Below, one piece after another: positions 5,150-33,893 of a stretch of DNA of 64,000 bases. Origin of the DNA: Cyanidioschyzon merolae (Eukaryota). Numbering within the stretch: the stretch's first letter is position 1; each line of letters opens with the position of its first letter. Under the pieces are notes generated by a model that worked only from the letters and a program-made list of their open reading frames with translations, did not search any database and was not told the origin of the DNA. Location: assembly GCA_000091205.1 (NCBI GenBank), contig AP006497.2, one strand, 5' to 3'. The position numbers were made by a program, and so were the translations under genes.

Positions 5150-6430
5150 TCAGCAAAGGAGCTCCGCCATGACGCGCTCTTCATCCGCTGGCGATGCAAC
5201 GATTCGACAGAAACCGATTCCTTCACCAGGTGACGGATTTTCCCATTTGCCTGCAAACGACGTCACCACTTTCACCACATCGTTCTCGGTGCTTTCAAAA
5301 AGAGTCGGGTGATTGGGTCCCCGCAAAAGCACTCTCCGTATGCATTCATCCAGTGGAACCGGGAAAACGAGAACGCCTACGGGGTAGGCATTCGCTTGCG
5401 CTGCAATCGCTATCCAGACCGCTCGTTGTGCGCTATCCACGTTGCACCGGTCGACAATGACGTGGCGAGGAGGATCAGACGTGAGCGCCTCCTGCATCAT
5501 GCGCTCACACTCCTGCCGAGATCCGAGATCATCCTGGCTGACTCGTACCCAGTTTTCACCTCCGTGTTTTAACACGAGTTTCGCGAATGTCGACTTTCCC
5601 GATCCAGGAATGCCACAGAGTAGGACTACGCGGGACCGATGCGCTCTCCCCGAGCTCTGGAGTTGCTCCTCCGAGGACCTGTATTGAAACTCGGAACTGG
5701 CTGCTGTCACCTCGGTCAGCGGCGCAGCCACACCCCAGCGTTGATCAGCTTCGCGGGTGCGCCCGATGTCGCAGTCGTGACCAGCAGTGTCGTCGGTGTT
5801 GCTCGGCGAACACGCAGTCGATGATAGGCAGCTCACGTGCAGCTCTCCACGCTCCTTACTGGCCAGAACCGACTGTTGCGGGCGCAACCGCTCCAGGTCC
5901 GAAGTGCCGTCTGTTCGCGAAAGCAGTGGCGCTCGGACAGCGCTCCGGATCGAAACGAAAAGCCTCTGTAAACGGTGTACCAACTGTACCGTTTGGCGAG
6001 CTGGGTTGTTCCCTGAGGCAGTGCTGGTCCGCATATCGCCAGAAAACAATGTCTGGCGTAGAGGGTGCTCGCTCAGAGCCAGCGTCACTTTGCAGTGTCG
6101 CCGCGCAGCGGGCTCCCTGCTCTTGCAGCAAAGTCGTCGAGCACACGTGTTTGCCGGCGTCGGTCGCTGCTGAACCAGAACCAAAGTTGGACCCACGAAA
6201 AGTCGAGTTCCAAGCTTCCTCTTGAGCATGGTCCTCAGCGACACCGCGATAGCCAGCCAGCTGCACAGTGCATAGTTTTCGGACAGTGCTGCGGCCAGAA
6301 GCTGCCGTTCAGTAGGGTTTACGCTGCGCGAACGGCGCTGCGGGAAGTTTGGGCGTTTTGCGCGCACATCGAATCCCAGGCGCTGGCCGCGCTGCTCCCC
6401 AGACCTGCTACGGTACAACAGGGGATTCAC
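5150..6430 (-). CDS. P-loop NTPase / polynucleotide-kinase-like (AAA_33-type) protein. The kinase domain is encoded at about 5150-5630. The N-terminal roughly 260 aa of the maximal ORF are low-complexity, so the true start is uncertain.
   Basis: Walker A motif VVLLCGIPGSGKSTFAKLV, followed by RHVIVDRCN (Walker B-like D) and a compact 160-aa kinase fold. Confidence 0.5.
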   Translation of the reverse strand: MNPLLYRSRSGEQRGQRLGFDVRAKRPNFPQRRSRSVNPTERQLLAAALSENYALCSWLAIAVSLRTMLKRKLGTRLFVGPTLVLVQQRPTPANTCARRLCCKSREPAARRHCKVTLALSEHPLRQTLFSGDMRTSTASGNNPARQTVQLVHRLQRLFVSIRSAVRAPLLSRTDGTSDLERLRPQQSVLASKERGELHVSCLSSTACSPSNTDDTAGHDCDIGRTREADQRWGVAAPLTEVTAASSEFQYRSSEEQLQSSGRAHRSRVVLLCGIPGSGKSTFAKLVLKHGGENWVRVSQDDLGSRQECERMMQEALTSDPPRHVIVDRCNVDSAQRAVWIAIAAQANAYPVGVLVFPVPLDECIRRVLLRGPNHPTLFESTENDVVKVVTSFAGKWENPSPGEGIGFCRIVASPADEERVMAELLC

Positions 6431-6543
6431 CGGCGTTGTCGGTGCTTATGTACTCATCTGGGGTGGCGTCCGACCAGTGGGGCTTGACTGAAATGATATA
6501 TGTTGGAGTATGTTTTGTGTGGAGCGTGCATCTGGGGATACAG

Positions 6544-6937
6544 CACGCGCATGATGCGTGCGTGCTTGGCACCGAACGCAGTAGCCACGACGACTCCTAC
6601 AGAGCGCCTCCTCTGGGTCGTTGAGGGCGTCAGATTCCATGCCACACTTGAGACTGGCAGTGCCCATACACGCACTGGAGCTGAGCGTTGTCATAAATCG
6701 GGACCTGGGGCTGCGAAACAATCGCTCTCAATGGTATTGCTGGCGTGCAACGAATGGACAGCGGGCACCACAACGCAAGTGCCCGCGGAATGCGGTGCGC
6801 TGGATGATTTCCTTGCATCTGTATGCAAGGATGCGCGCTCTGCTTCTTGTGCTGGTGCTGCTGCTTTGGGGAATTTGTGCACGTGCGTCATCCACGCTGA
6901 TGGTTGCTTTTCGAATGGTGACTACTGAGGCGCATTC
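6544..6937. repeat. Left arm of a roughly 395-bp inverted repeat pair; the partner is 12303-12698.
   Basis: The reverse complement of 12303-12698 aligns to 6544-6937 at about 96% identity. Mirror-image ORFs (6621..6992 + and 12288..12677 -, MRASDSMPHLRLAVPIHALELSVVINRD...) confirm it. Confidence 0.9.
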
Positions 6938-7709
6938 GCGAACATACATACTGATCTTTACCGAGCAGCAAGCGCGAAGCAGTCGCATGTAAGCGATTGT
7001 TGCGACAATCAGCTACCCGCATGCGTAAAGCTCTACCATTGCCAACGATGCTCTCTACTGAAACCGCATCATCCTCGGAAGGCACGTATCACCGATGCGC
7101 TATTATCATTGGACGCAAGCCGCCGAATCATCGTGCCGTTCGGCAGCGCGTGCACCACCAAACGATCAAAAAGCGCAGGTTACACCTGCACCCGTTCGCC
7201 TGCACCGCAGTATCTCGTTCAAGCAGTCGCACGATGATGGGGCTATTGCGCCAATCTGGAAACCGCACCGCCGTCCACCGACAATCCCGCGAACACCCGT
7301 GTCCTTTCCTACCTAACAAAATGTTAACGTACACCGGGGGATTCCGATTGGGCGCCAGCTAGCAGCGCTCTATGTAGCAAACACACGTCCACGTGTCGAT
7401 CGCGCGTGCACCGGAATCCCGCCTCTGCCAGCAGCTGTGCGCTGCGGTGATCGCGGATTCGCGCCAACGACGCCAAGCGCTGCTGCTGGTGCTCTCGGTG
7501 CCCGTAATCCGTTGTTGCGCTCAGACGATATGCGCGCGCGCGCACGCTGGCGGGGGCACTGGCTGCGATCCGCGAACGTACGTTGCCGTAGCGCTGCATT
7601 TTTCGTTGAGGCTGTGCTTGCTCGTAGGTCGAGAAGCGGCCCGGTTGCGGCCGCAAACAAGTTCGAGTCCAAACGGGACCCGCAACAACACGAACAAGTG
7701 TTTTGGTGA

Positions 7710-8573
7710 ATGTTCCTCTTTGCTAGCACGTTTGTGTGTCAGCGAGCCTGGCCGCGAGCGCGCTTTCGGAACGCCCCGTGTCGGCGCGTGACGTTGGACG
7801 CTAGGGGTGACTCAGTGAGTGCAGGTGCCGAACAGCCGACGCGTCGTCCTGAGGCGCCCGCGAAAAGGCGTGGGAGTCGCTTTCTCATCAAGGTCCGAAA
7901 GTCTGTGCGCACCACACGCAAGCACGGTAGCGTCATTCCAGCTGATGTTTGGTTACCACCCGAACTAACAAGTGACGTTTTGCCTTGCGGCGACAGCAAA
8001 CTCTTGGATAATGAGGCGCACTTACCGGCGCTGGTGCTCAACGCGGACTATAGACCCCTTTCGTACCTGCCACTGTCGTTGTGGTCCTGGCAAGAAGCAA
8101 TAAAGGCGTCGCTTTCGGGTCGCGTTCGTGTTGTTGCCGAGTACGATAAAATTATTCGTGCACCGTCGATGAGCATGCGGTTGCCTGCTGTGGTGTGCCT
8201 CAAGCGCTTTCAGCAGAGCACGGTCTCTCGGGCAGCTTTCACACGTTTTAACGTCTTCCTTCGGGACTCGTTCCAGTGCCAGTATTGTGGTACGAGCGGG
8301 CCTATCACAGATCTGACGTTTGATCACGTCGTGCCGCGTTCGCGCGGTGGCAAGACGTGCTGGCGCAATGTCGTCACCTGCTGCACGGCCTGCAATCGAC
8401 GCAAAGGCGGCAAACTGCCCCACGAAATACCAAATATGACGTTGCAACGTCAACCTTATGTACCGCTATACTGTGAATTGCAGGAAGTGGCCCGTAAGTT
8501 TCCCCCGCGATTCTTGCATGAGACCTGGGCAGACTACCTGTTCTGGGATGTGCCCCTGCAACGAGACGAATGA
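7710..8573 (+). CDS. HNH endonuclease of the bacterial / plastid-type small HNH family, with a roughly 100-aa N-terminal extension (putative organelle-targeting presequence).
   Basis: C-terminal HNH motif FDHVVPRSRGGKTCWRNVVTCCTACNRRKGGK. The upstream LVLNADYRPLSYLPLSLWSWQEAIKASLSGRVRVVAEYDK matches the conserved N-region of the roughly 170-aa bacterial HNH family (LN..Y.PL…W.RA…..GKA.V.E). Confidence 0.8.
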   Translation: MFLFASTFVCQRAWPRARFRNAPCRRVTLDARGDSVSAGAEQPTRRPEAPAKRRGSRFLIKVRKSVRTTRKHGSVIPADVWLPPELTSDVLPCGDSKLLDNEAHLPALVLNADYRPLSYLPLSLWSWQEAIKASLSGRVRVVAEYDKIIRAPSMSMRLPAVVCLKRFQQSTVSRAAFTRFNVFLRDSFQCQYCGTSGPITDLTFDHVVPRSRGGKTCWRNVVTCCTACNRRKGGKLPHEIPNMTLQRQPYVPLYCELQEVARKFPPRFLHETWADYLFWDVPLQRDE

Positions 8574-10893
8574 TGGAGGTTTGGGGTACGAACGTGACTT
8601 GGAAGTGCCCCGCCCCGCGGTTGCGTATCTCGAACGTTTGCCTGTCTGGGGCAAGCCTCGTTAGAATGCAGCACTTCAGTGCGAAGTGAGTATACGAGCT
8701 GCAAGAGCTGTCGACCAATCCACGGAGCGCGCGCTTCGTGGAACCATCTGATTCAGAGGATCCCGGGCAGAGCCATGATCTCTAGGCTTTCGAAGGCGTA
8801 TCGCTGCTTTTGCCGGCATTGGCGCTGTTCGTGGTCCAGATGTATTGGAAGCGAGTCCGACCGAACGCTATGCGCTGTCGAGAGAAACGACTGATTCAGC
8901 GTGTTATTTACTTTGCGATGGAGACGAATCCGCAGGCCACGATCGAGCCCTTTGCGAACAGTGCTTATTTCTGGTCGATCTGTAGATGTGCAGAATGGAG
9001 GTGTCAGGTGCATGGAATGCGCGTCACGATACAACGCGGATCTTGTGGCACGACATGGCATTGCACAGCTGGTACCGAGGAAGCTTCGTCAGAAACCAAC
9101 AGGGAGCTATTCTTTCCGTGTGGAATCGTGAGAAGCGTGCAATCGCTATGGGTTGCCATCCGTCGTGTATTTCAACGCAGCGAGGCCGTTTCATCTAGCG
9201 TGAATTCTAAAATGTGCAGTATCTGCTCATCGGTCAACTGCAGTACACTCGTGTCCGAATGAAGTGGAACCTGTCCACTTGCCTACGACAGGCGCACGCT
9301 CTCAAGTCTGGACAGCTCCCACTGCCATGAACACTGGTCTTTGCGGGCTTTTTATACAACTGATTCTTTTTTCTTCTTGACATCTTCGGCTCTAAACTCG
9401 CCTGGCTCTCCTGCCCGACCAGCTCCATCGTCCGCAATTCAAAGGATTTTGGCGGAGGCGTTCAATTCTCGTGTTCACCGCTTCTGCACGTGATTCACAA
9501 GCACCACGCGTAAGCGGAAAACTTGCGATCTACGCTTCGCTTGTTGCTTTCAATATCTTTTTGTCAGGTTTTGCGCGCCCTTCGCAGCGCTGACGCGTCA
9601 CAATTGGTAACGGTTCCCGAATGCGTCGGCCGCTCCTCGCTCTTCGGTAGACGCCCTGTGGCGCGCTAACGCTCGCTTGATCGCTTGTTTCATGCCCTTG
9701 ACAGGTACAGAAAGGAGGTCTCCGCTGCTTTGCTGTGTTTTGGCTCCTAGTCCGAGCCATGCGAACAACCCCTCGACTGGGAGACGCCCTCGGAGAATAC
9801 TCTGTTCGCTACAGGCGCAAGCGCACGCTGTTCCATTTGATGGAGGAATCGTTGAAAGCGATATTGTCCGGGATGGAAGAAGCACCCGAAAAGGAATTCT
9901 AGGCTCGAGAACACGTCGAGAAATGTTGATCCATCTCCGGCTCCTTGTTTCCAAAATGCTGACGCTTGCTCTATCGGAAGCCGTCGCTTTATGGACAGAG
10001 GTCCATGTCCAAGACACGTGTCCGTGCAAAAACCAGGATGCCGATGCCTTTCGAGGCATATCTCGTGATAGGCTTCGAGCTGGTGTCGCATGCATTTTGC
10101 CGATGGCCTCTAAGAGAGGGGCAATTTGTTTCTTGAGCGGAATCGATTCTTTGAAGTGAAAAGATCGTTGAATTCGCAGCGTGAACCTGTGAACAAGCAA
10201 TCAACGGATGACGTCGAGGTGTTTCCCTTTTCAAGTCAGCGGTGCGAATTCCAACGGCCACGATTTGTCCTGGAACAGAGAGATCGAAATCTTGAAAAAT
10301 GTGAAATTTGAGCATGCTACACGTACAAAAAGGAGAAGCGTGGAAGCCTGCACATGTTAATTGGATGAAGATATCCACTTTTTTAAGAGCTCTTGTTTCA
10401 TTGTGTCGCGAATCATTTCGATTCCGGCGACGTAACGAATTCCAGCAGCAAAGGATCGAAGGAATCGCTGCGAAAAGACTACCAAGAATAACAAACCCCG
10501 TATGCAACCGAACGTTCTTTCTACTGTTCTGCGACCACCAAAGCTCCACGTCTAGAACATCTTCTGAAAAACAATCACAACGCAGGAACAAAGCGACTGC
10601 TTCAGTGTTCCGTGTTTATCCGACACAACTCCAGCGGACGGAAATCTGTCCCTATCCGAGAACAGCGAATAGTTGCAACGCAGGCATGCCCTGCACCCGA
10701 TCGCATCAGGTAAACGGCCTTCTTCGATTGAGACAACGTTTCTCCGCACCGGGGATTCCCGATTTATCCATCCCACAGAGCAGGCAAACCATGGAGATCA
10801 CGTATTCGGTGAAAGCGTTGTCACCAGGTCTCCTCTGGTTGCGTTCAGCGCGATTGCATGCCCATGGACGTTGCCATACGACGCATCGGTCGC

Positions 10894-11733
10894 CTAGGCA
10901 TTGGGCACTTTGACTGGCGATAGACCCATCTGTTCAAAGCGGCCGCTCTGCTCCCAGGCATGAACGCCGCCCTCAATTTCCTCGAGCACACGAGCGGCCG
11001 TCTCCGAGGAAGCTCGGAATCCCTCGAGGAGTTGCTGGAGCCGCGGACGGTTCCGGAACACCGGACGATGATGCCACTTGGGCATGATCGCAGCGTACAT
11101 CGCCAGTGTGGGCGCCAAAGCGATATCTGCGAGGGTCACCATTTGCGTTTCGACGGCATGACGTCTGGTATTGTCCTCAGTGAGCATGGTCTCGAGTGTA
11201 TCGAGATGTAGCTCGATTTGCGAGAGCCCATGCTCTCGCTCCGCAGGTGTATTTGTAGGCCGATACAGCACCGCCTGATTCGTCGTGAGGTACAGATCGT
11301 GCACTCGTACATAGAGACGCGCGCGAGCTCTTTTCTCTGGAGTCTGCGGCCGGTATCGCTCCCCGAGTCCGTATTTGTCGAGGAGATACTCGACGATGAC
11401 GTCACTTTCCCAGATGCTCTCTCCCGTGGGCAGCACTAACGCAGGGAACTTGCCATACTTGTGCACTCTCTGTCGATATTCCGAAGTTTTCAGGTATGAA
11501 CCTGGAGGTTCAATTTTTATGTCCAGGTTGTTATCGTAGATGATATACCGAACGCGAGCAGAAAAGTTCGACACGGGAACCGAGAAAAGCGTAGCAGTCT
11601 GGTTGCTTGTCGTGTCGTTCATCAGCACGCACAAGGTTCCCTTGTTGATAAAGTGACGCCGTTGGGCTCGCGGAAATATTGCTTGGATAGGCGTATGCTT
11701 AGGTCGAACAGGCAGAGCGTGAATGAAAGCCAT
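10894..11733 (-). CDS. Glutathione S-transferase-like protein, with a thioredoxin-like N-domain and a helical C-domain. The real start may be the internal Met near 11628.
   Basis: GST N-domain signature …KFPALVLPTGESIWESDVIVEYLLDKYG (cis-Pro, ES..I..YL) and a helical C-domain (LAPTLAMYAAIMPKWHHRPVF…). Confidence 0.65.
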   Translation of the reverse strand: MAFIHALPVRPKHTPIQAIFPRAQRRHFINKGTLCVLMNDTTSNQTATLFSVPVSNFSARVRYIIYDNNLDIKIEPPGSYLKTSEYRQRVHKYGKFPALVLPTGESIWESDVIVEYLLDKYGLGERYRPQTPEKRARARLYVRVHDLYLTTNQAVLYRPTNTPAEREHGLSQIELHLDTLETMLTEDNTRRHAVETQMVTLADIALAPTLAMYAAIMPKWHHRPVFRNRPRLQQLLEGFRASSETAARVLEEIEGGVHAWEQSGRFEQMGLSPVKVPNA

Positions 11734-11903
11734 CGGTTGTTGCGTAGGCCCCAGAAATACAGCGCGCTCTCTACGTGCCTCTGGGCGGGTCTAAGCGAAA
11801 GGACACAATAGTAATTGACAACTCTGGCTGCAAGCGATGCGATGCAGAGGCCACCGGGCGGCGGCTGCGGAGGCGTCCGGTGCTCGATGGAGCGATTCGC
11901 GAG

Positions 11904-11904
11904 G

Positions 11905-11964
<60 letters not shown>

Positions 11965-11966
11965 CT
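11904..11966. repeat. (GCCT)n / (CCTG)n tetranucleotide microsatellite of about 15.5 units, 170-270 bp upstream of the GST-like gene start.
   Basis: Perfect gcctgcctgcct… run seen directly in the sequence. Confidence 0.95.
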
Positions 11967-12302
11967 TCTCGCTACTGCTGAACAGCGTTTCGCGCCACGT
12001 GTGGTGGATGAGCTTAGGCGCTGCTCGATCAATGTTTACGCCAAGAGCTACCCGCATTGCTCTGTGGCTTGCAAACCCGGATGCTGGCCGACCGCATGGG
12101 TCCAGTACGTGCTGCTGCCAGATGAAGATCGAAGAACGAGTAGTTTTGGTGTTTAGGGTTCTCGGAATGGAGGCTCATTCCTGGTAGCGTTCATTAGAGA
12201 TTCGCAAAAGAAGCCGCCGATGATTTCAGGGCTGGGTTGAGCGTCTTTTGCGCGCTAGATGACAGGCGTATGCAGAGGTATCCACCATCAAGCACCCTTC
12301 GG

Positions 12303-12698
12303 GACCTCAGTAGTCACCATTCGAAAAGCAACCATCAGCGTGGATGACGCAAGTGCACATATTCCCCGAAGCAGCAGCACCAGCACAAGCAGCAGAGCGC
12401 GCATCCTTGCATACAGATGCAAGAGAATCATCCAGCGCACCGCATTCCGCGGGCACTTGCGTTGTGGTGCCCGCTGTCCATTCGTTGCACGCCAGCAATA
12501 CCATTGAGAGCGATTGTTTCGCAGCCCCAGGTCCCGATTTATGACAACGCTCAGCTCCAGTGCGTGTATGGGCACTGCCAGTCTCAAGTGTGGCATGGAA
12601 TCTGACGCCCTCAACGACCCAGAGGAGGCGCTCTGTAGGAGTCGTCGTCGCCACTGCGTTCGGTGCCAAGCACGCACGCATCATGCGCGTGCGCGTAC
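12303..12698. repeat. Right arm of the inverted repeat pair (partner 6544-6937).
   Basis: See the left arm; the reverse complement aligns at about 96% identity. Confidence 0.9.
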
Positions 12699-12954
12699 CT
12701 TCTAGGCACAAGGTCCAGCGAATCGGATGCGCACACGGGTCCAGTGCGCTCTCTGCGCCTACCCACTGTGGTGGGTGTCAAGCACAAACCCGCATTGCCA
12801 ACCGACAACGCATTCCATGCATGATCACGAAGGAGAGAGGCCGCTCCCAGGATTCATCCTAACAGCCAAGTTTCTCCAGCGTGTCGTGCAGCGAAGGCAA
12901 GCCTGCATCCGCAGACTGTCTGAGCACAAACTGACGACGAGACCCGATTCTACG

Positions 12955-13250
12955 TCGTGTAAACCACGCTTCGAGCCGACGCCCTCTGTGGTATAGAAAA
13001 GCTATTCTAGCTCTATGAACTATCTGCTCCAGCGGTTCAGGCGCAAAGGCGGATGATTAGGGTAGGTACTAGACACACCCGATAGGGCATATGAGACGAC
13101 CAGAATATCCGAGAAGAAGTATAGGTAATGTAACTTGGGAGTAGGAGGTTGATGGATACTTCACCTCGCACTGAAAAACCCAAAAAGAAAAGAAAAATGC
13201 GCATAATCGGAGAACGCTGGCCTATGGAAACGTTTCGTCAATGAAAAAAA
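12955..13250. repeat. Copy 2 of the roughly 300-bp dispersed repeat family (copy 1 at 1250-1565), in the same orientation, about 260 bp outside the right IR arm.
   Basis: Alignment to 1262-1560; the ends are well conserved and the middle is diverged. Confidence 0.6.
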
Positions 13251-13429
13251 ATGTGCATGCGCGCCGTCGCCGCGTCGCTGCGTGCGTGCCCCGTCATCGA
13301 TGCCGTGCACGCGGTAGCGCTGAACGCTCTAGCGAGCGAGGCAGCAGCGTCTTCATTCCTTCTTTGTGACAGAGGCACCGCGCTACCTTCATACGTCTTG
13401 ATCTGGTTACCTCACAACGTGCATAGCGT

Positions 13430-14287
13430 TTGAAACTGCACTCGTATCCTACTTACAAAGGACGTGGCGGCGTGAGAGGAAAAGCAGTGGCACGGACGCG
13501 ATCCCGCGAGATGGATACCACCGCCAGCTACCACGTGTTGCTGGTGTTGCTCTCCGTTGAGACTTTTCTCTTCTTTGCAGTTATTGCACAGACAGCAGTG
13601 CAGGAGCCGCTCGCACACGGGAAAATCGCCCGCTTTTTTGGCCTTGCTTTTCTGTCAGAGTCGGTTGCGGGCCTCGCACTTGCAGTTACGCCACTGCTGC
13701 GCGGAAGCGTGTTCCTGCTGGACCTTTTTGCGCTGATCGCTGTTGTGGCGATATGGGCGGGCGCCGCTGTTGCAATCATTGGTGCGGCACACGTTGTTTT
13801 TCCAGAGGATGCGAGACGGGAAGTTCGGGTAGCTCTGGTCGTGCTGTTTGCGTTTGTGTTCGCGTTCGGAACCGCGCGTCTCTATGTCGCAGTAAGTGCC
13901 GCGACACCGGCTTTGCCCCTCTGGTCCACAGACTCGCTGCGGGTGTCTGTTGCGGTTAGCCAGGGCGCTATGGCCAGCGTGGGTGCTGCTTGTGTCCTGC
14001 GAGCGCTGGCTCGACCGAAAATACGGGGCCGGAACGGGGCTTCAGTTTTGCTCCTGGGAACCTTGGTTTGCCTTGTAGGTTCAGTGATTTGGACATGGCT
14101 GTTAGGCAAATGCGAGTTGTCGCAGACGTTGGACAAGGAAGATGTACGGTGTCCGCTTCCACCGGTGTTCGATCACAACGCTCTTTACTGTCTGTTTCTT
14201 ATTGCAGGCAATATTCTGAGTGCAGAAGGCGTCCTGCGTCTTATGGCTGTCGGGGACGGCGCGTTGAACTATGCAGAGATTCCCTGA
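13430..14287 (+). CDS. Hypothetical multi-pass membrane protein with about 6-7 predicted TM helices. The start is possibly the internal Met (MDTTASYHVLL).
   Basis: Successive hydrophobic 20-aa stretches (LLVLLSVETFLFFAVIA, LFALIAVVAIWAGAAVAIIGA, VALVVLFAFVFAFGTARLYVAV, VLLLGTLVCLVGSVIWTWLLG). No family recognised. Confidence 0.45.
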   Translation: MKLHSYPTYKGRGGVRGKAVARTRSREMDTTASYHVLLVLLSVETFLFFAVIAQTAVQEPLAHGKIARFFGLAFLSESVAGLALAVTPLLRGSVFLLDLFALIAVVAIWAGAAVAIIGAAHVVFPEDARREVRVALVVLFAFVFAFGTARLYVAVSAATPALPLWSTDSLRVSVAVSQGAMASVGAACVLRALARPKIRGRNGASVLLLGTLVCLVGSVIWTWLLGKCELSQTLDKEDVRCPLPPVFDHNALYCLFLIAGNILSAEGVLRLMAVGDGALNYAEIP

Positions 14288-14856
14288 AGGGCATTGCACT
14301 CCGTTCGCCCTCCGGTGATCCTAAGTCGACTGCTTACCGGTTCCATTGAGCGACAGGGTACATCAGCGAACGATAAAAAATGCATCGTGCCCGTGAGTCG
14401 CGCGCTAAAGACGCTTGGAAACTGCGTCGTACATTGTCGCCCAATGGGCAGCTGCTTGGTTTCGACGCTTGACCGACAATTGGAACCGTACCGCGCTGCG
14501 GGCGTGCATGTGGGTACCTGTTTGTGCGGGCCTTGCGTTCGTCTGGAGACAGGCATGCCGAACATGAAACCAGCCTGTTAGCAGGCTACCGTGTGGAGTC
14601 GCTATCGGACTCGCTGCGATTCCCGGACACAACGCGGCCCGTGTTCTTTTTCGCTGCGAATGCGAGGAATAACACAACCGCTTTGAGGCATCGCAAAACC
14701 AGGCTAGGAGAGTCAAAAGCTACTGACTACCGTCCAGGACGCAGTAAACACTCTCTAGTACTCTTTCTGGTAGAACTAGGGCAGATCGCTGCCTAGTTCA
14801 TTAGCCGCCATTAAGAGGCGCTCGGTATGTTCCCCGGGGAGGCGTGCGGGGTAACC

Positions 14857-15637
14857 CGATGACGAAAGCGAATTTTTCCATGATGAAACAAGTACCGGAA
14901 GGAATGCGCAGTTTGCATATACTGTCGAGACATACCGATCGATCTACGCTCCCCTTGTGCAGAGCGATGACCCAAGCTCCTCTGCAGGATATCGCTGGGT
15001 CCACAGCACGCCGTGCTCAAGATGCTTTTCTTTGCAAGCACTGGAGACAGGAGTCTCTGGAGGCACGTCCCGTGAGCGGTTTCGTTCGGCTGTGGACTGC
15101 CGTTTCTTCCACAGCGACAAAGGGATGAGGATTTGTGTCTCGAACCGGATCGATTGCTTGCTGACGTTCCAGGTCCAGGGAGTATGCGGCGCGCGCTCCT
15201 GAACACGTCCTCAAGCCACGTCGTCGAGTTTTGGTCTCTCGTCTATCCAGCGGCGTGCACGACCGCGCCCTCGACTTGCCCTGAACTCGAAAGATCCACA
15301 GCATGAAACATGTGTGATTTGCGCACAGTACACGTCATGACATGGGAAGCGTGGCGGCGTGTCCGTATGAACTGCATCACGATAGCGGTTGGTTAGGATT
15401 CCTTGCTCCAGCGTGTCGAGAATCAGCGTGCCTGCTGTAGCATACCGAGAATCCGGCGGCAAAGAGACGATGGAGCCAGTCCGAAAAGGCATCGAAGCAC
15501 CCTAAATTTACGTATGAACCCGAAAGCCCATCTTGCAGCACTGAGCGTGTCGAGTCTATATACCTACAACATTGGACGGGAGCAAAACAATCGAGTCGCA
15601 GAAACAGTGAGGAGTAGAGCGCTCCACCGTCTTCTGA
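14857..15637. repeat. Copy A of a roughly 780-bp direct repeat pair (copy B at 22193-22967).
   Basis: Nucleotide identity is about 97-98% over the full length. Identical overlapping ORFs appear in several frames in both copies (for example MFRSARRILPGPGTSASNRSGSRH…). Confidence 0.9.
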
Positions 15638-15805
15638 CACGAGAGTTGTTCGCGTTCGCAAGCCCTGCAACGGCGGGTTCTCAGCCAGAACCGGCGGTGG
15701 ATCTTGCTCTTCTGCCATAGCGTACTCGTTCAAGTGACAAAAACACGTGCCAGTTGCGTGCGTTTCTCTGTCGCTTCTTGACAGCGGTGCTTACACCCTG
15801 GACTT

Positions 15806-17194
15806 TTGCTCTGCTTCGTGTTACTCGTGGGTACGGAAAACCAGGGCTGTAACAAGAACGCATTTCCCTACGACCTGTCTGTGTTGGGGAAGCTGCTGGG
15901 CGAGGACGCTGCAGCACCCGGTTCAACGCAGGTGAGCGCTCTCGTCTTGACGCCTTGGAGCATGCAACCAGGCACCGAAGATGATCCGCTTCCGTACTCT
16001 GAAGCAGTAGTTGAGCCACTTACTCTAGAGTATGAAGCTCCAGAGCACGACACTATGCTGGGAAACGGAGAAGCGGCGCGAGCGGGCAGTGCGGGAACCC
16101 CAAGCCGCCCAGCGCATCCCGAGGATGCAGTCAGTTTTCGTTTTGATCCCAAAGTTTGGGAGCAGGTGCACCTGAAGGATGAGAGCAACTTGATTTTTTA
16201 CGAGGGCGGCCTCGACGACGAAAACGACGGCACAGCTGGAGGTTTCGACGAGATTCAGGAGCAGTTTCGGGAATCCGAGGAAATACAGGCCTCTGGGGCG
16301 CATACTCAGTCAAACTCGGCGGAGCACAGTTGTATGAGCGCGCCGTTCTACTTCTTATGGGGTATAATGCTACGCATTCTCCAACCTTATTTCGAAATCG
16401 ATAGTAGCGATGTGATGCTCCGCTTGAGCCGCTCATTCGTACCTATTCGACCACTGCTCGCCGGCGAGCATCACCAGATGAATATGGTATTGCGCCTGCA
16501 CAAAATATGGACCAGGATTCGCCAGTTTTCTCAGGCGCGTTCGCCGGAAACCGCTGAAACTAATGCGACTATCGACAGTGATATCAGCGACGACGAGTGG
16601 ACCTACTCGAGGAGAGCGGACTTGTATGGGCCGTTCTGGATCGCGACCACCTTGATCCTGTTACTCTCGCTGAGCGGGACAGTTTCTCACCTGCTTCATC
16701 GTGCCTCGGTGCATGCTGTACAGACAGCAAAGGCGTCTACAGCTGTGAAACCGGTTTGGAAGACCTCTGAGATTATCCGCCTAACCGTTTCAGCAGCGAT
16801 TATCTATGGATACGAGCTTCTGGCCGCCACTGTGCTTTGGGCGCTGCGGCTTGTTTATCGTTCGCAGGGCCAAGTACCGCCCTGGACTACCATGTTGTGC
16901 GTTGTAGGGTATGCTCAGGGCCCGCTGGTACCGGCGTCATTGCTTGCGCTGTTTCCCTATCAGTTCTTTCAGTTTGTTGTTATGGTTGTTGCTTTTGCCC
17001 TTAGCGTGGGTTTTTTGGCGCGCAACCTGCTAATTGAGCCACTGGCCGGCGCCGATACTAGTCTGGATGCTGGTGAAGCCACGATTACGGAACCTATCTG
17101 GTTGTTGAAGCAGCGTGCACTCGTGCCGGCGCTTGTAGCTGGCTTGCTCCAGATCGGCTTTGCGATCTGGTGCGTACTCTTCATCATTCTGTAA
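15806..17194 (+). CDS. Yip1-domain family membrane protein, with an acidic cytosolic N-region and a C-terminal 5-TM bundle.
   Basis: DLYGPFWIATTLILL motif (the DLYGP hallmark of the Yip1/YIF1 family), a GY motif (VVGYAQGP), and five C-terminal hydrophobic helices. Confidence 0.55.
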   Translation: MLCFVLLVGTENQGCNKNAFPYDLSVLGKLLGEDAAAPGSTQVSALVLTPWSMQPGTEDDPLPYSEAVVEPLTLEYEAPEHDTMLGNGEAARAGSAGTPSRPAHPEDAVSFRFDPKVWEQVHLKDESNLIFYEGGLDDENDGTAGGFDEIQEQFRESEEIQASGAHTQSNSAEHSCMSAPFYFLWGIMLRILQPYFEIDSSDVMLRLSRSFVPIRPLLAGEHHQMNMVLRLHKIWTRIRQFSQARSPETAETNATIDSDISDDEWTYSRRADLYGPFWIATTLILLLSLSGTVSHLLHRASVHAVQTAKASTAVKPVWKTSEIIRLTVSAAIIYGYELLAATVLWALRLVYRSQGQVPPWTTMLCVVGYAQGPLVPASLLALFPYQFFQFVVMVVAFALSVGFLARNLLIEPLAGADTSLDAGEATITEPIWLLKQRALVPALVAGLLQIGFAIWCVLFIIL

Positions 17195-17633
17195 ATGGGA
17201 AAACGCTGAAAACCATATCGGAATCCGAGTATGTGACGAAAAGCGGTGTTTGAACGGGTCCGGAGACGATTCAGGAAGCAAGCAATGCAATGCATTTGGA
17301 TGCTAATGATATCTATGTTTTGACATCGTTGGCCTTCATGCACGCACTAGAATTCCGGTGCGAGGAAGCGGCTCGGGGTCCGTTCTCACTGCAGCTGCAG
17401 TGTCGATTGGATCGAGTCCTTCCGTACAAACAGAAGCGACTCATGGCTGCTGGAGAATGCACTGGTCCTCTGAGCGCGGGCGACACCGGCCCCCAGAAGA
17501 AACAACAACAGAAGACAGAGATGACAGGGAATAGCTCCATTAGCTTTTCTAGATTAGAGACAAAACGTATGGAGTGCCTTGCCGCCGTTGTCTTAGAACG
17601 CTGTTCCGCAGGGGCGTCGGCATCGACAGCCTA

Positions 17634-17825
17634 CGGCGTCTTCGATGCCCCTTGCAGACCAAGAATGCGTGACCGCCCGCTGGTATAGGGCGCTGTAGCA
17701 ACTACTTGGAGCGTCTTCGATGCCCCTTGCAGACCAAGAATGCGTGACCGCCCGCTGGTATAGGGCGCTGTAGCAACTGCTTGGAGCGTCTTCGATGCCC
17801 CTTGCAGACCAAGAATGCGTGACCA
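17634..17825. repeat. 75-bp minisatellite of about 2.6 tandem copies, roughly 470 bp upstream of the PMS1 start.
   Basis: Unit ggagcgtcttcgatgccccttgcagaccaagaatgcgtgaccgcccgctggtatagggcgctgtagcaact(a/g)cttg repeated head-to-tail. The 75-bp period also shows as repeated 25-aa blocks in the ORF track. Confidence 0.9.
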
Positions 17826-18294
17826 CATAACGACGGTGGCCATAGTAGCTGGCGACCGGGCGCCAGTGACAAGTAGACTCGAGGAGTTTTCATGAACAAG
17901 CGTCTTGTTCCGGGGACTGCTGCTTCCTATCCCCCATATACATCCGTATTCCGAAAGAAGCTTCCCATTGGTTTTCGATCACCAAACGCATCTATACATC
18001 TATCAAGTCTAGTATGGGACTGTCCCATCGCGCGTCATGAGCATCGGACATTGCGACTTCATCCTGTGTGGTAGAGCGTGAGCGCCAGAGACACAATGTC
18101 CAGATTTGTGCGCTTTCAAAAAACGCAGCGTTTCGTACCCGGACAACGACCACACCACCAGGAGCGTTTCTCGACCAGTGAGTCGAGCGCCTGCACAAAC
18201 TGGGTTACTCTTCGTCTTTGGAAACAAGAGCAATATGTTTTCTGTATCCTAATGGCGTCGAACGCCCTGTCAACGGCTGCTTTCTTATACCTTC

Positions 18295-20787
18295 ATGCTC
18301 CAGACGCTACCGCCTGAAGTGGTGCGCCACCTCACCAGCGCTCCCGTGGTAACAAGTCTAGCCAGTGTTACCAAGGAACTGGTTGAAAATGCACTGGATG
18401 CAGAGGCAACCCAAATCAGTGTCTTTCTCTCTGGATATGGCCTGGAGTTCATCGAAGTAAGCGACGATGGCTGCGGAATCGCCAAACAGGACCTTGAGCA
18501 GCTCGCGCAACTCCACACAACCTCAAAGCTTCGAGCTTTCGCGGAACTATCGAGCATATCTACGTACGGGTTTCGCGGCCAGGCTCTAGCATCACTGGCT
18601 ATGACGGGTCGACTGGAGATTTCATCACGACCGCGAGATCGGGACGCCTCGGCGGTACCTGGCGTCGCTTTTCGTGCTAGGTACCAGGCTGGTAGGCGCA
18701 TCTCTGACCTGGAGCCCGAGGCGCGTCCCTATGGTACGACGGTGCGCGTATATGAACTCTTTGCATCCATGCCCGTTCGTAGACGGGAGGCAGAGTCTCA
18801 GAAAAAACGAGAACTTCAAAAGGCAATTCAAATCCTGCAGACGTATGCGTTAGCGGCGCCCACGGTGCGCTTTTCGGTTCAGTGGACGCCGAAAGGTCGC
18901 GAACGTCCAACGCTCTGCCTAGCCACACAGGGCAAATGCACGCTCCGTTCGTGCTTCAGCCTGTTGTACGGTGCGGAACAGCTCACGAAGCTGGTGGACC
19001 TCGCGGTAATTGTAAAGTGGCCCACACCGCTGCCCGGTGCCTGCACAGAACCTGAACTCCACATGCGGGGCCTCCTGAGCCGATGTTACCCAGCAGCAGG
19101 GCGCTCTGCCCCAGATCGACAGATGTTGCTACTGCAGGCAAAGCGGCCGGTGCAGTGGACCAGAATGCGCCGAATGTTGGACTCGGAGTTTCGCCAACGA
19201 ACGTGCACTTCGCTCTACCCTGTTTACGTGTTGGCCATCGACCTGCCACCAGATACCTTCGACGTCAATGCGAGTCCCGACAAAACCGAGGTCCTCATTC
19301 ACGACGATGCAGCGGTGGTTGCCTCGGTTCGGGAGGCATTGCGTACATCATGGACACAGGTGGCTGACGTCCGCACCAGGGCCCCATTCTCGGTGCAGAC
19401 TGGAAAGTGCGCCGATGCGCGAGCGAAAGCCCCCGACGATCATCTGCGAGCTGCTCAACTAGCGAATCAGCTGGAATGGTCTGTCACCACAGAACAGAAG
19501 CGAGACACTAGTCAGAGGCTTGTCACAGATGCGAGACCCGCATGCGTCAAGGAAAGTGCTACATCGACGCTCGCTGCGTCGGAAACGACGCTGTCGTCGT
19601 CAGGGATGAGCGCGGGAGTTTGCGTCGCCTCGAGAGCTGAAGTAGAGGCTGCGTCCTTCATCGTCGACCATGTGAAGCCGCACACAACCGAACAGCCATT
19701 CCGTGAATCCCTGCAAGCATCCTCGGCGGCGGTTGCGGCGACGACGGGAGCCCATGAACAATGGGAAACAGCTGAGCCACTTGCTCAGCGATGGACGCAT
19801 CACAACGCTGAGGCTGCCTCTAGCGGAACGGAGTCCTCGGGCACGATTCATAGAAGCGCGGATACGATCCTGAGTGGTGTGAGCGGTGTCAACAGCCACG
19901 AGCACGATCGTGTAGTCGCTCGCGCGTCTGGTGCGTCCATGGAGCGCTGGCTCGCAGTCCACGTCGTAATCGATCCTTTCCAGTGGACGTCATCTGCGAA
20001 TATCTCTCGCAGCTCAGGTTGCGCCCGCGATGCCGACTTGCCGCATGTGGAGCCTATCATTCGTGCCCGTGTTGGTGAGCGTTTGCAATTGGCGTGCCTC
20101 TTGGAAGCCAGTACTCCGAATACGACGGAGGATTGCGTCACAGAATCAAGCACTGAGGCAGACCGGGAACTAGAACAGCGATTTCACAAGCATTGGTTCG
20201 AAGAGATGCGTATCATCGGTCAGTTCAACTGCGGTTTCATCCTCGCAACCTATGGTTCCGACCTTTTCATCATCGATCAGCACGCGGCTGACGAAAAGTA
20301 CATCTATGAGTCATTGGCGAGGGCATTGCGTCCGCGTACACAGAGCATGCTCCAGCCACTTTCGATACCCGCTTCGGCCTCGGAAGAGCTCACGCTCTGG
20401 GAACAGCGCGAAAACCTGGCAGCGCTTGGGTTCGAGCTCGAGTTTCGGTGGAGTGCGCCTCCCACGGAGCGTGTCTGGATGTTGGGAGCTCCCACGGTAT
20501 GTCAGACGGTGCTGGAAGCAACCGACTTGCTAGAGATTGCGCATCAAGCACCGCTCACTGGTCGGGTTGCCGACCTGCTGCGTGCCAGTCGAGTGAAGTT
20601 GCTGCTTGCGACTCGCGCTTGTCGTCGAGCAGTGATGATCGGGATGCCGCTGGATCGTACCCACATGCAGAGTATTGTTGCTCGTTTGGCGACGCTGGAG
20701 CAGCCGTGGAACTGCCCACACGGACGACCGACAATGCGTCATTTAGTACGGGTCTCCGAAATCGGGTTCCGCAGGGCGGTCACCTGA
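18295..20787 (+). CDS. PMS1: DNA mismatch repair protein of the PMS1/PMS2 class (eukaryotic MutL homolog carrying the endonuclease motif), 830 aa, single exon.
   Basis: GHKL ATPase motifs KELVENALDAEAT, EVSDDGCGI and TYGFRGQALASL. A long disordered linker. A C-terminal dimerisation/endonuclease domain with FIIDQHAADEKYIYESL (DQHA(X)2E(X)4E). Confidence 0.9.
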   Translation: MLQTLPPEVVRHLTSAPVVTSLASVTKELVENALDAEATQISVFLSGYGLEFIEVSDDGCGIAKQDLEQLAQLHTTSKLRAFAELSSISTYGFRGQALASLAMTGRLEISSRPRDRDASAVPGVAFRARYQAGRRISDLEPEARPYGTTVRVYELFASMPVRRREAESQKKRELQKAIQILQTYALAAPTVRFSVQWTPKGRERPTLCLATQGKCTLRSCFSLLYGAEQLTKLVDLAVIVKWPTPLPGACTEPELHMRGLLSRCYPAAGRSAPDRQMLLLQAKRPVQWTRMRRMLDSEFRQRTCTSLYPVYVLAIDLPPDTFDVNASPDKTEVLIHDDAAVVASVREALRTSWTQVADVRTRAPFSVQTGKCADARAKAPDDHLRAAQLANQLEWSVTTEQKRDTSQRLVTDARPACVKESATSTLAASETTLSSSGMSAGVCVASRAEVEAASFIVDHVKPHTTEQPFRESLQASSAAVAATTGAHEQWETAEPLAQRWTHHNAEAASSGTESSGTIHRSADTILSGVSGVNSHEHDRVVARASGASMERWLAVHVVIDPFQWTSSANISRSSGCARDADLPHVEPIIRARVGERLQLACLLEASTPNTTEDCVTESSTEADRELEQRFHKHWFEEMRIIGQFNCGFILATYGSDLFIIDQHAADEKYIYESLARALRPRTQSMLQPLSIPASASEELTLWEQRENLAALGFELEFRWSAPPTERVWMLGAPTVCQTVLEATDLLEIAHQAPLTGRVADLLRASRVKLLLATRACRRAVMIGMPLDRTHMQSIVARLATLEQPWNCPHGRPTMRHLVRVSEIGFRRAVT

Positions 20788-20856
20788 TACCTGGGCAATG
20801 CAGATAGATCGTTTGCAGACGATGTATACGGTATGCATGAAGTAACCCGACTTTAG

Positions 20857-21195
20857 ATGCACTCCAGACGAGTGCTGGTTGTATTGGGTCTGCGTGCGAA
20901 TGCAGTGCGGGTTACGAAGGTAGAATCCTTTATGTTTTGTCGTGAAGATTTTCGCCGGCTCGTCTCGCGATGCGTAAAGTTTATGTCAAGAGAAGGGGAC
21001 GAGCCTCATCGAAATGAGGCGCGAACTACTTCTACTTCTACTGATGCTGCTGCTGCTGGTGGTGGCGGTGGCGGCGGTGGCGGTGCTAGGTGCATTGCAT
21101 TCCGGGCCAGATATCGCTATTTAGAACCCGAGTTTCCGTCCTGGAAACTATGCGACAAGATCTCTGAAGACCATGATGAGTGCTCTGTGCATTGA
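20857..21195 (+). CDS. Small ORF with a poly-Ala/poly-Gly tract encoded by (GCT)5(GGY)9. Doubtful as a gene.
   Basis: The ORF sits just downstream of PMS1. It is low-complexity and no family was recognised. Confidence 0.15.
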   Translation: MHSRRVLVVLGLRANAVRVTKVESFMFCREDFRRLVSRCVKFMSREGDEPHRNEARTTSTSTDAAAAGGGGGGGGGARCIAFRARYRYLEPEFPSWKLCDKISEDHDECSVH

Positions 21196-22192
21196 CGCAA
21201 GCCAGAGTACGTTCCACGGATGTCAAGGAGGATTGTTCGACCTCAAAACAAACCGTGCTCTGCGCTTTGAACGGAGCACGCTGCAGTGGGTTGCACGGGT
21301 ACATGAAATCAATGTTGGACCTGAAGCAAAATGTTCTTTCGTGCCTGTAATCCAATTCACCCGGTACGAGCGGAATAAGGCGTCTGGGTCTCAGCCGTCG
21401 TAGAAAGGCAGACAGCAAGCTCGATAACCTCGTCGCAGTGCAGACTATGTATGCGCTTACTTCACAAAATATTTAGCGTCACAGACAAGTCATGCTTTTG
21501 TGCCAAAATCGTAGGAAAAAGTTCGATTGCGTTTCCTAAAGAACCAATTCGAGTATCACGAAACAGGTTTATCCAACGCATCCTCACAATCGTGGCAGAA
21601 TGAAGTGAAACGATTTCAACCAGCCTATTCTGGCGTTCAAATGAGTGGTTGAGTATATCCGGCTGTTACCAAAACTGGTCTTTGCGCGCTCGTTCGGTAA
21701 TGTCTTTCGTATACCTTCGGCAAGCTTCTGCGCTGGGTGTGCAGGTCTCCTGTGTCATTCGAGCTTCGGTTTCAGTAGTGGATGGATATTGATGGCAACG
21801 GTAGTGGTACGATGCCGCAATTTCGAGTTGCTGTCGAGGCATTTCATGCACAGAAGGTAGTTGCGATCAACGTTTTGCTCGCCATGATCATCTTCATTGC
21901 AGACAGCTTCGGTGGGCGCTTTGTACCGCTGACGCATGCCTGTGATAAGGTGCCCCCATATGTCCATCGTGCCTCCGTTCCCGATAGCCGCCCTGGGTCG
22001 CGTCAAGGCCAGCATCATCGCTCAGGAACCGTCCTCGAAGCGTACAGAAGGTGTCAGTGGATACCCGCTCCCGTTTCCGCGCCCGTTGCCGTGCCCTACA
22101 ACCATGTGCTTCTTCTGGGGGATCCACTCCTCGAGTACGCTCTCCACTGCACACGAAAGCGCATGATGTGCTTTGCAGTTGTGGATTTGCAG

Positions 22193-22967
22193 AAAGCGAA
22201 TTTTTCCATGATGAAACAAGTACCGGAAGGAATGCGCAGTTTGCATATACTGTCGAGACATACCGATCGATCTACGCTCCGCTTGTGCAGAGTGATGACC
22301 CAAGCTCCTCTGCAGGATATCGCTGGGTCCACAGCACGCCGTGCTCAAGATGCTTTTCGTTGCAAGCACTGGAGACAGGAGTCTCTGGAGGCACGTCCCG
22401 TGAGCGGTTTCGTTCGGCTGTGGACTGCCGTTTCTTCCACAGCGACAAAGGGATGAGGTTTTGTGTCTCGAACCGGATCGATTGCTTGCTGACGTTCCAG
22501 GTCCAGGGAGTATGCGGCGCGCGCTCCTGAACACGTCCTCAAGCCACGTCGTCGAGTTTTGGTCTCTCGTCTATCCAGCGGCGTGCACGACCGCGCCCTC
22601 GACTTGCCCTGAACTCGAAAGATCCACAGCATGAAACATGTGTGATTTGCGCACAGTACACGTCATGACATGGGAAGCGTGGCGGCGTGTCCGTATGAAC
22701 TGCATCACGATAGCGGTTGGTTAGGATTCCTTGCTCCAGCGTGTCGAGAATCAGCGTGCCTGCTGTCGCATACCGAGAATCCGGCGGCAAAGAGACGATG
22801 GAGCCAGTCCGAAAAGGCATCGAAGCACCCTAAATTTACGTATGAACCCGAAAGCCCATCTTGCAGCACTGAGCGTGTCGAGTCTATATACCTACAACAT
22901 TGGACGGGAGCAAAACAATCGAAACGCAGAAACAGTGAGGAGTAGAGCGCTCCACCGTCTTCTGACG
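22193..22967. repeat. Copy B of the roughly 780-bp direct repeat pair (copy A at 14857-15637).
   Basis: See copy A. Confidence 0.9.
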
Positions 22968-23252
22968 CAGGCGTGTCGCGCAGCCACCGTCGCAGGCGCT
23001 TCGAGTGCAGCAACAACTTGTTGTCTCTGAGCCGAGTTATCGGGCAGTTTCCACAAGCGCTGCTTTCTTCGTAGTGACTCTTTGCAGTCTGTCATCAGAT
23101 ACCTGGTTGACTCCGCAACGAGTAAGCCTACGACACAGCAGTAGTCGACTAAAGTGCACGAGCGCTCTGGTCCAGTGAGACGGTTCGTGAACCAGCCGAA
23201 GGTTGACGTCAGATAAACGCAGATTCCAGAAACGAGAGCCCCACAGGTCGTT

Positions 23253-25406: not shown

Positions 25407-25674
25407 ACGGGTGCGGTGGTGGTATCCACGGCTTTGTACTCAGTCGCATGGTTGTGTCGATTCTGTTTAAGCAGCTTTGGCAAAAGCCAAAACGAGCGTG
25501 TTCATCGTTCAACCACGATTTCTTAGCCCGCAGCGACTGAAAGCAACTGGGCGCGCTTTAGGTTTCCGCGGCAGCGACGGGCGAGTCGCTTCACGACGCT
25601 TCGTTCAGTTGCAAGTCGAGCATCCTGTGGTCTGTGCACCTGGGATAGACTAACGCCGTGGAGGATGCGGAACC

Positions 25675-26714
25675 ACGCTGCAGCTGGTAAAAAGAGGTAC
25701 CTCCAAAGACGCTGATACTCTCCGCTAATCGAGCTACAAGACATGCTCTGCAAAGAAGAGCTAGGAAGGGCTCTTGCAGTATGCTGCAGCTGGTAAAACG
25801 AGGTACCTCCAAAGACGCTGATACTCTCCACTAATCGAGCTACCTAGACATGCTCTGCAAAGAAGAGCTAGGAAGGGCTCTTGCAGTATGCTGCAGCTGG
25901 TAAAACGAGGAACCTCCAAAGACGCTGATACTCTCCGCCAATCGAGCTACCAAGACATGCTCTGCAAAGAAGAGCTAGGAAGGGCTCTTGCAGTATGCTG
26001 CAGCTGGTAAAACGAGATACCTCCAAAGACGCTGATACTCTCCACTAATCGAGCTACCTAGACATGCTCTGCAAAGAAGAGCTAGGAAGGGCTCTTGCAG
26101 TATGCTGCAGCTGGTAAAACGAGGAACCTCCAAAGACGCTGATACTCTCCGCCAATCGAGCTACCAAGACATGCTCTGCAAAGAAGAGCTAGGAAGGGCT
26201 CTTGCAGTATGCTGCAGATGGTAAAACGAGATACCTCCAAAGACGCTGATACTCTCCACTAATCGAGCTACCTAGACATGCTCTGCAAAGAAGAGCTAGG
26301 AAGGGCTCTTGCAGTATGCTGCAGATGGTAAAACGAGATACCTCCAAAGACGCTGATACTCTCCACTAATCGAGCTACCTAGACATGCTCTGCAAAGAAG
26401 AGCTAGGAAGGGCTCTTGCAGTATGCTGCAGATGGTAAAACGAGATACCTCCAAAGACGCTGATACTCTCCACTAATCGAGCTACCTAGACATGCTCTGC
26501 AAAGAAGAGCTAGGAAGGGCTCTTGCAGTATGCTGCAGATGGTAAAACGAGATACCTCCAAAGACGCTGATACTCTCCACTAATCGAGCTACCTAGACAT
26601 GCTCTGCAAAGAAGAGCTAGGAAGGGCTCTTGCAGTATGCTGCAGCTGGTAAAACGAGGTACCTCCAAAGACGCTGATACTCTCCGCTAATCGAGCTACC
26701 TAGACATGCTCTGT
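25675..26714. repeat. Tandem satellite with a 106-107-bp unit in about 10 copies, showing higher-order alternation of two unit subtypes. It lies in the intergenic region between the DEAD-box and acyl-CoA synthetase-like genes.
   Basis: The unit cagctggtaaaacgag(g/a)(t/a)acctccaaagacgctgatactctcc(g/a)c(t/c)aatcgagctac(c)(t/a)agacatgctctgcaaagaagagctaggaagggctcttgcagtatgctg recurs head-to-tail. Variant positions alternate in copies 3-6 and are homogenised in copies 7-10. Confidence 0.95.
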
Positions 26715-26806
26715 AGCGATGATCCAGCTGGCGCCCCTACACCTAACTGTATCCCCAGCTGTGGAGCGGAGCACCGCTCGAGCGACACCAACCTGGAACT
26801 CGCCGC

Positions 26807-33000: not shown

Positions 33001-33299
33001 GCCATCACGGAGATCGCCAACGTTTATTGATGGACGAATGCGAGAAGCGTACGTCTGCGAGCTTGTTCCATGAACAGGGAAGGTAGATGACCGATTACGC
33101 GCGTCATTTAGCGGCGGTGGGAGCCCCTGCCGCAGGACGCGTTGTCGAGCGAAATAGCTACGCTCCTCCTCTCTCGAACAGAGTGTACAGCGGGTGCAGG
33201 AATCGATTCTATAAGATTTCTGTCGATGCTTTCAGGATGACATTCGCGCGTCACGAGCACATGTGCTCGCTCCAAAACGTTTAGAAGCGGGAAGCGAAT

Positions 33300-33750: not shown

Positions 33751-33893
33751 TGAAAATTAGCAAGTACCTTAGATCTGTACCAGGATGTCACCTTTTATTA
33801 GAATGCATGTGGCGAAGAAGGCAGCGCAACAGATTGAACGCTGCACTGCTGAATTGCGTTTCCTCCTCAAAACTGATCGAGTCCTTCGAAGCT

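Follow-up and report, generated by a model that had tools for sequence, protein, structure and literature searches.

What does a pair of almost identical DNA arms, set in opposite orientation around two nuclear genes, record: the ends of a mobile element, the hinges of a segment that inverts, or the trace of a past rearrangement? We addressed this question for a locus on chromosome 15 of the red alga Cyanidioschyzon merolae 10D, whose genome is finished (PMC1955436). The window, i.e. the whole stretch of DNA that was analysed, comprises 64,000 nucleotides (nt) of contig AP006497.2 (GenBank assembly GCA_000091205.1), and the arms in question enclose an HNH nuclease gene and a convergent GST-like gene. 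A first reading made from the letters alone (the sequence-only reading) had proposed that this segment either flips by recombination or is a transposable element that captured host genes. The explanation that we consider probable is a different one: an intergenic stretch of 388 bp, apparently non-coding, has undergone segmental duplication in inverted orientation in this lineage, and the copies bracket an ancient convergent HNH-GST pair, forming neither a mobile element nor a dedicated switch. The repeat looks like a by-product of rearrangement, an ordinary scar, because its right arm lies in the left breakpoint interval of an inversion specific to C. merolae.

An inverted repeat around a conserved gene pair

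A repeat search and self-BLAST both revealed one pair of opposed arms (coordinates in Table 1), each 388 nt long and separated by 5374 nt, which is the sole inverted repeat of at least 80 nt in the window. In an ungapped comparison the arms were identical at 380 of 388 positions (97.9%), with the eight mismatches at 6583, 6586, 6810, 6811, 6845, 6867, 6875, and 6883 and the longest shared perfect block (223 nt) at 6587-6809. The sequence-only reading was thus right about the inverted arms but drew them a few bases too wide (6544-6937 and 12303-12698), which accounts for its lower identity of ~96%. The edges are sharp, with similarity dropping away at once outside both arms, and comparison of the flanks bore out the earlier remark that the outer edges carry no target-site duplication: the left arm is preceded by ...GGGGATACA, the right arm is followed by GCGTACCTTCT..., and the inner flanks of the two arms are likewise unrelated in sequence. 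Both arms lie in divergent intergenic regions, the left one 314 nt from the ATG of the kinase-like gene (first ATG at ~6229) and 780 nt from that of HNH, the right one 572 nt from the ATG of GST and 819 nt from that of the next gene, here called X. Because independent hot-spring metagenome assemblies (JGI, ENA, and Logan) reproduce the locus, both arms, and both junctions at ~99.4% identity, the repeat is not an artefact of the reference assembly; it is real and older than the split of these strains. No publication on this repeat was found in the literature.

The two convergent genes that the sequence-only reading had placed between the arms, HNH on the plus strand and GST on the minus strand, were recovered as open reading frames (ORFs) with Pfam matches. 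The HNH core, over the C-terminal two thirds of the protein, is ~60% identical to alphaproteobacterial HNH proteins of ~185 aa, beyond which the algal protein has an N-terminal extension of ~100 aa. This fits a host gene of putative bacterial ancestry, and the product may go to an organelle. The protein is not a homing endonuclease within a mobile element.

To place the segment in a wider context, we compared it with the orthologous loci of relatives, namely two uncultured ones, represented by a 97-kb JGI contig (L023/L033) and a Logan contig (L024), and Cyanidium caldarium GCA_026184775.1 (L025). The X protein of L023/L033 is 74% identical, compared with 76% for Cyanidiococcus yangmingshanensis. 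The order and strands S28e(-), kinase-like(-), HNH(+), GST(-) are common to C. merolae and all three relatives, in each of which the HNH and GST orthologues are convergent and occupy the same position. None of the three has an inverted repeat around HNH-GST, and no arm-like sequence was detected in L023-L025 or L032-L035 when the arms and both intergenic regions were searched by blastn (word size 7) and tblastx. Nor does any of them offer an empty site, since HNH and GST occupy the interval from the kinase gene to the following gene in L023, L024, and L025, armless as these loci are. Because gene order is conserved in relatives lacking the arms, HNH and GST are an old host gene pair and not captured cargo.

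The neighbouring 26-kb inversion and the origin of the repeat

The comparison with relatives also revealed a rearrangement directly beside the segment. The genes beyond GST in the relatives are, in order, A(+), B(-), AMP ligase(-), DEAD helicase(-), PMS2(-), Yip1(-), and X(-), with FKBP(+), a gene of ~700 aa(-), and LysRS(+) next. The C. merolae order beyond GST is X(+), Yip1, PMS2, DEAD, AMP ligase, B(+), and A(-), and then FKBP(+), a 744-aa gene(-), and LysRS(+). The interval of ~12.7-38.4 kb is inverted, because L023/L025 carry A, B, AMP ligase, DEAD, and PMS2 on the other strand, and because in L032/L033 the orientation relative to X is reversed for FKBP, the 744-aa gene, LysRS, and CMO045C. 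Since Cyanidium shares the other state, the arrangement of C. merolae is the derived one and the inversion of ~26 kb is specific to its lineage.

The left breakpoint interval of this block (11734-13510; 1.78 kb, from GST to X) contains the right arm together with an older dispersed repeat, and the other breakpoint interval (38361-39493) contains one copy of a young 450-nt duplicate. The right arm therefore lies at a breakpoint of a lineage-specific inversion and is absent from the outgroups. No inverted similarity was found between the two breakpoint intervals of the 26-kb block, and on this ground recombination between repeats was rejected as the cause of the inversion.

We infer from this co-location a link to break repair, in which one arm would have arisen as an inverted copy placed into a nearby break between genes as the ~26-kb block from X to A inverted in the ancestry of C. 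merolae. On this view the arm is repair "filler", a locally templated copy at the breakpoint. Once present, the arms could pair through the general homologous recombination machinery of the cell; non-crossover outcomes would exchange variants between them, and crossover outcomes would invert the 5,374-bp segment. Such a flip would break neither gene, and each would carry at least 570 nt of its own upstream DNA.

Inverted duplications at inversion breakpoints are familiar from Drosophila, where they arise via staggered-break or replication template-switch repair. The present case resembles these in that a young inverted duplicate, absent from outgroups, sits in the breakpoint interval of a lineage-specific inversion, and in that the second breakpoint interval also contains a young local duplicate. 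It differs in that the classical duplicates flank the inverted block, whereas here the arms flank the adjacent, non-inverted HNH-GST segment and the 26-kb block has no inverted repeat at its ends.

Several points weigh against an origin of the repeat as a rearrangement scar. The arm copies do not flank the inverted block; they bracket the HNH-GST pair, which keeps its ancestral orientation relative to the kinase gene, so that the classical staggered-break model cannot be applied directly. Given the width of the breakpoint interval (1.78 kb), the presence of the right arm in it could be a coincidence, with a rough estimate of ~1 in 10. The intergenic DNA of the relatives is too diverged to tell which arm is the original. 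The near-exact coincidence of the arm with an ORF of 125 codons, described below, is odd for random intergenic DNA. As for continued exchange between the arms, the single contig with a flipped junction (L007) could be a misjoin through the repeat within one genome, and the mosaic single-nucleotide polymorphisms (SNPs) of the arms may come from bubble-popping by short-read assemblers rather than from gene conversion.

Orientation of the segment and other readings of the arms

The strongest alternative is that the segment is a truly invertible region, in which general homologous recombination flips the 5.4-kb segment often enough for both isomers to coexist in clones or wild populations, as with plastid inverted-repeat isomers or the human FLNA-EMD segment; we regard it as doubtful. 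Regulatory consequences may or may not follow under this reading. Junctions were counted in all fetched contigs that cover an entire arm and reach unique sequence at either end of it. The reference orientation was represented by 14 distinct contigs running from the left flank through the arm to the HNH side and by 4 running from the GST side through the arm to the right flank. The flipped orientation was represented by one contig (L007 = L029, JGI 3300027863), which joins the right flank through the arm to the HNH side, and the reciprocal flipped junction, from the left flank to the GST side, by none. Reference junctions thus make up 18 of 19 and flipped junctions 1 of 19, all from short-read assemblies, and about a dozen further contigs terminate inside the arms. 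Neither a second flipped contig nor the reciprocal junction was found among the fetched contigs and in one metagenome scan.

The halves of L007 are 100% identical to L017 and have 1 mismatch in 2943 nt relative to L008. L017 and L008 both derive from JGI 3300005573, where the assembler broke at the arms, and together they represent one strain type. Because both halves match a single strain type, L007 is not a between-strain chimera. The arm alleles at 6583/6586, 6810, and 6875 are carried by the left arm in some contigs and by the right arm in others, and the arms are identical in three contigs that span both of them (L014, L015, and L038); gene conversion would produce this pattern, and so would short-read bubble popping. 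The use of arm SNPs as a test of L007 as a true recombinant proved uninformative: the variants are mosaic and possibly an assembler consensus.

With 388 nt at 97.9% identity and a perfect block of 223 nt, the arms are long and similar enough for homologous recombination, by which C. merolae is reported to integrate transgenes (PMC12874030). Because C. merolae recombines homologous DNA readily (PMC12874030), occasional inversion is mechanistically expected, and flipping of the 5.4-kb segment driven by recombination is plausible but unproven. Consistent with an invertible region are the length and ~98% identity of the arms, the flipped-junction contig with both halves from a single strain type, the many assemblies that break exactly in the arms, the arm variants common to left and right arms across strains, and the proficiency of the organism in homologous recombination. 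However, 18 of the 19 junctions are in the reference orientation, the reciprocal junction was never seen, and both of the supports drawn from assemblies are possible artefacts, because assemblers misjoin through inverted repeats and pop SNP bubbles. The proposal of flip-flop inversion made in the sequence-only reading hence stands insofar as a credible substrate and one flipped junction exist, but was overstated, given one junction in 19 from short-read data. A real orientation polymorphism is in our view possible but unlikely. The same holds, tentatively, for a fuller scenario in which a naturally flipping nuclear HNH-GST segment segregates in both orientations in hot-spring Cyanidioschyzon, L007 is a true isomer, and the arms stem from the breakpoint of the 26-kb inversion and evolve in concert.

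Whether or not the segment flips, a regulatory switch is unlikely, because inversion leaves at least 570 nt of native upstream DNA with each gene and changes only distant neighbours; a regulatory effect is therefore not expected even of an invertible region. The earlier claim that promoters abut the arms, so that inversion would swap the upstream contexts of the genes, went too far: inside the segment, 780 nt of native upstream DNA stay with HNH and 572 nt with GST. Pfam and NCBIfam searches gave only HNH, GST, and the kinase-like protein in or beside the segment, the ORFs of spacer and arms being without a family, and thus no recombinase. A dedicated recombinase switch was rejected because neither the segment nor its neighbourhood encodes a tyrosine or serine recombinase, and with it falls the suggested analogy to FLP or to phase variation. 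Like the FLP/FRT system of the yeast 2-micron plasmid and the Hin, Gin, and Fim switches, inverted repeats bound a segment here and inversion would change gene neighbours. Unlike them, the locus has no recombinase, HNH being a nuclease domain and not a tyrosine or serine recombinase, and no promoter is split by the arms.

Two further systems offer parallels. Plastid inverted repeats are 10-25 kb long, identical, and part of a multi-copy genome, and their isomers are equimolar. The process proposed there is the one considered here, intramolecular homologous recombination between inverted repeats that inverts the intervening sequence, but the present repeat is nuclear, 388 bp long, and 98% identical, and its reference orientation prevails 18:1 in assemblies. 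The human FLNA-EMD segment is flanked by inverted repeats of ~11 kb and shows polymorphic or recurrent inversions. As in that case, inverted duplicates of high similarity enclose a handful of host genes, a flip by general homologous recombination would disrupt no gene, and gene conversion is expected; in contrast, the arms here measure 388 bp and the segment 5.4 kb, the orientation polymorphism comes from a single short-read contig, and C. merolae, a red alga, is haploid and unicellular.

Should the repeat be no more than a scar, it shows a very compact, transposon-poor genome gaining small local duplications at rearrangement breakpoints and places the 26-kb inversion in the lineage of C. merolae. 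Should the flipped contig be real, the locus would serve as a simple natural assay, both of homologous recombination within a chromosome and of structural polymorphism in wild populations of Cyanidioschyzon, and true flipping would make the locus a built-in natural reporter of mitotic or meiotic recombination in an alga whose sexuality is debated. Neither outcome alters the understanding of how inversions arise, and the finding is real but ordinary.

Much less probable than an invertible region is that each arm is one copy of a small functional unit and that selection and concerted evolution keep the copies alike; the unit could be an unannotated gene of 125 codons, a non-coding RNA, or a duplicated bidirectional promoter module. 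An ORF of 125 codons runs through the arm from ATGATG at 6551 to TGA at 6926-6928, such that the arm extends from 8 nt before the ATG to 2 nt past the stop codon. This close match of repeat edges to ORF, together with the position of both arms in divergent intergenic regions, speaks for a functional unit. However, a phmmer search of 1.84 billion representative proteins returned only the ORF product itself, Pfam gave no family but sub-threshold noise, and an E-value scan of Rfam gave no match anywhere in 6000-13600. The codon score of the arm ORF (0.008, compared with 0.128 +/- 0.083 for genes and -0.03 +/- 0.04 for the best of six frames of intergenic DNA) is indistinguishable from that of intergenic DNA. 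The eight differences between the arms fall 2/2/4 on codon positions 1/2/3, with four or five changing the amino acid, and are not concentrated at synonymous sites. The arms of strain 10D contain no annotated gene, because the protein accessions of the flanking genes are consecutive and none lies between the BAM81422-like kinase and HNH, and the arm is absent from relatives. A protein gene was thus rejected on the phmmer, Pfam, and codon results, and a known RNA on the empty Rfam scan and on the lack of any tRNA in the 64-kb window; we treat the arm as apparently non-coding intergenic DNA.

The weakest alternative, capture of HNH and GST by a non-autonomous DNA transposon with long terminal inverted repeats, has only the geometry of inverted terminal repeats around a gene-bearing segment in its favour and can safely be dismissed, because the same genes occupy the same site beside the same neighbours in three armless lineages, there is neither a target-site duplication nor a transposase, no other copies were found in one metagenome scan, the 64-kb window, or contig L049, and transposons are very few in C. 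merolae (PMC1955436). In one metagenome scan a 30-mer from the arm core occurred in 4 JGI contigs, all of them from this locus, and no further arm copies, including diverged ones, were present in the 64-kb window or in the wild-strain contig L049 described below.

Spacer, local repeats, and other features of the window

The features of the segment and its surroundings are collected in Table 1.

Table 1. Genes, repeats, and rearranged block at the HNH-GST locus (positions in the window)
Feature	Position	Strand	Description
Left flanking gene, AAA_33 / polynucleotide-kinase-like	5150..6229	-	first ATG gives ~359 aa
Left arm	6543..6930	+	divergent intergenic region, kinase-like gene / HNH
HNH nuclease gene	7710..8573	+	BAM81423.1 / XP_005537459.1, 287 aa; Pfam HNH_5 2e-15, HNH 2e-13
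Diverged copy of a local interspersed repeat	8954..10415		within spacer; tblastx and blastn
GST-like gene	10894..11733	-	BAM81424.1 / XP_005537460.1, 279 aa; GST_N_3 6e-13
Microsatellite (GCCT)15	11904..11963		171-230 nt upstream of GST start codon
Right arm	12305..12692	-	divergent intergenic region, GST / gene X
Block X-Yip1-PMS2-DEAD-AMP ligase-B-A	12693..38360		inverted in C. merolae relative to Cyanidiococcus-like lineages and Cyanidium
Older dispersed repeat copy	12987..13250	+	direct twin 1288-1561, 73-86% identical; starts 295 nt outside right arm
Right flanking gene X	13511..14287	+	258 aa, no Pfam family; opens inverted 26-kb block
450-nt direct repeat copy	38933..39382	+	twin 33300-33749, 99.3%; young intergenic duplicate

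The gene-free spacer of lower GC content that the sequence-only reading had noticed between the two genes was recovered as a stretch of 2320 nt (8574-10893) without a Pfam hit, in which GC falls to 0.43-0.49 at 10.0-10.6 kb. The HNH-GST spacing is 169 nt in Cyanidium and about 720-760 nt in L023 and L024. Part of the spacer (8954-10415) is weakly collinear with 21021-22715 (35-40% at the amino-acid level; 66% over 161 nt at the nt level) and also collinear with a 775-nt repeat at 14864-15638 and 22192-22966, so that the spacer is most simply regarded as a diverged interspersed-repeat copy. The two copies of the 775-nt repeat form a young, intergenic direct duplicate of 99.1% identity, whose weak relationship to the spacer suggests a putative interspersed repeat family. 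A family of 253 interspersed copies is reported for the C. merolae genome (PMC1955436), and the spacer may belong to it, a candidate link.

The microsatellite noted earlier as (CCTG)15 was found again, read as (GCCT)15. It has 15 units in strain 10D compared with 5-8 in metagenome contigs, a length that short-read assemblies may under-call. The dispersed repeat reported outside the right arm was likewise located, as was its sister to the left of the left arm. It weakly matches (~70% over 57-61 nt) an inverted pair of 164 nt in L023 (3690-3853 and 16789-16952), one copy of which likewise adjoins S28e, and may be a conserved small element of unknown nature without an Rfam hit. Near the left copy of this repeat (1288-1561), the wild contig L043 (JGI 3300050376) diverges in its positions 1-1355 from the reference left of window position 1680, with a BTB-domain gene replacing the S28e side, and may represent another structural variant.

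A possible further copy of the GST gene was observed in a wild-strain contig. In L049 (JGI 3300050386, Ga0506592_000410), positions 4341-5583 correspond to window positions 11775-10533, a GST-bearing segment of 1243 nt with 99.5% identity and sharp junctions that reaches from 42 nt upstream to 360 nt downstream of the gene. It has the orthologue of CMT138C, a gene of chromosome 20, on one side and a diverged interspersed-repeat copy on the other, and is either a duplicative GST insertion in the wild strain or a chimeric contig. Repeat-like parts of L049 also show scattered, weak tblastx similarity to window positions 49205-61824 (~12.6 kb), which contain no ORF of at least 250 aa and may be made of interspersed repeats.

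Of seven window proteins looked up by exact sequence, five match named proteins of strain 10D: besides HNH and GST (Table 1), PMS2 corresponds to BAM81427.1, LysRS to BAM81433.1, and CMO045C to BAM81434.1. The AMP-ligase gene CMO037C (BAM81429.1) falls, as a shorter member, into the cluster of the ORF at 26807-30085. Just upstream of CMO037C lies a tandem array of about ten 107-nt units (25632-26787) that are 96-99% identical.

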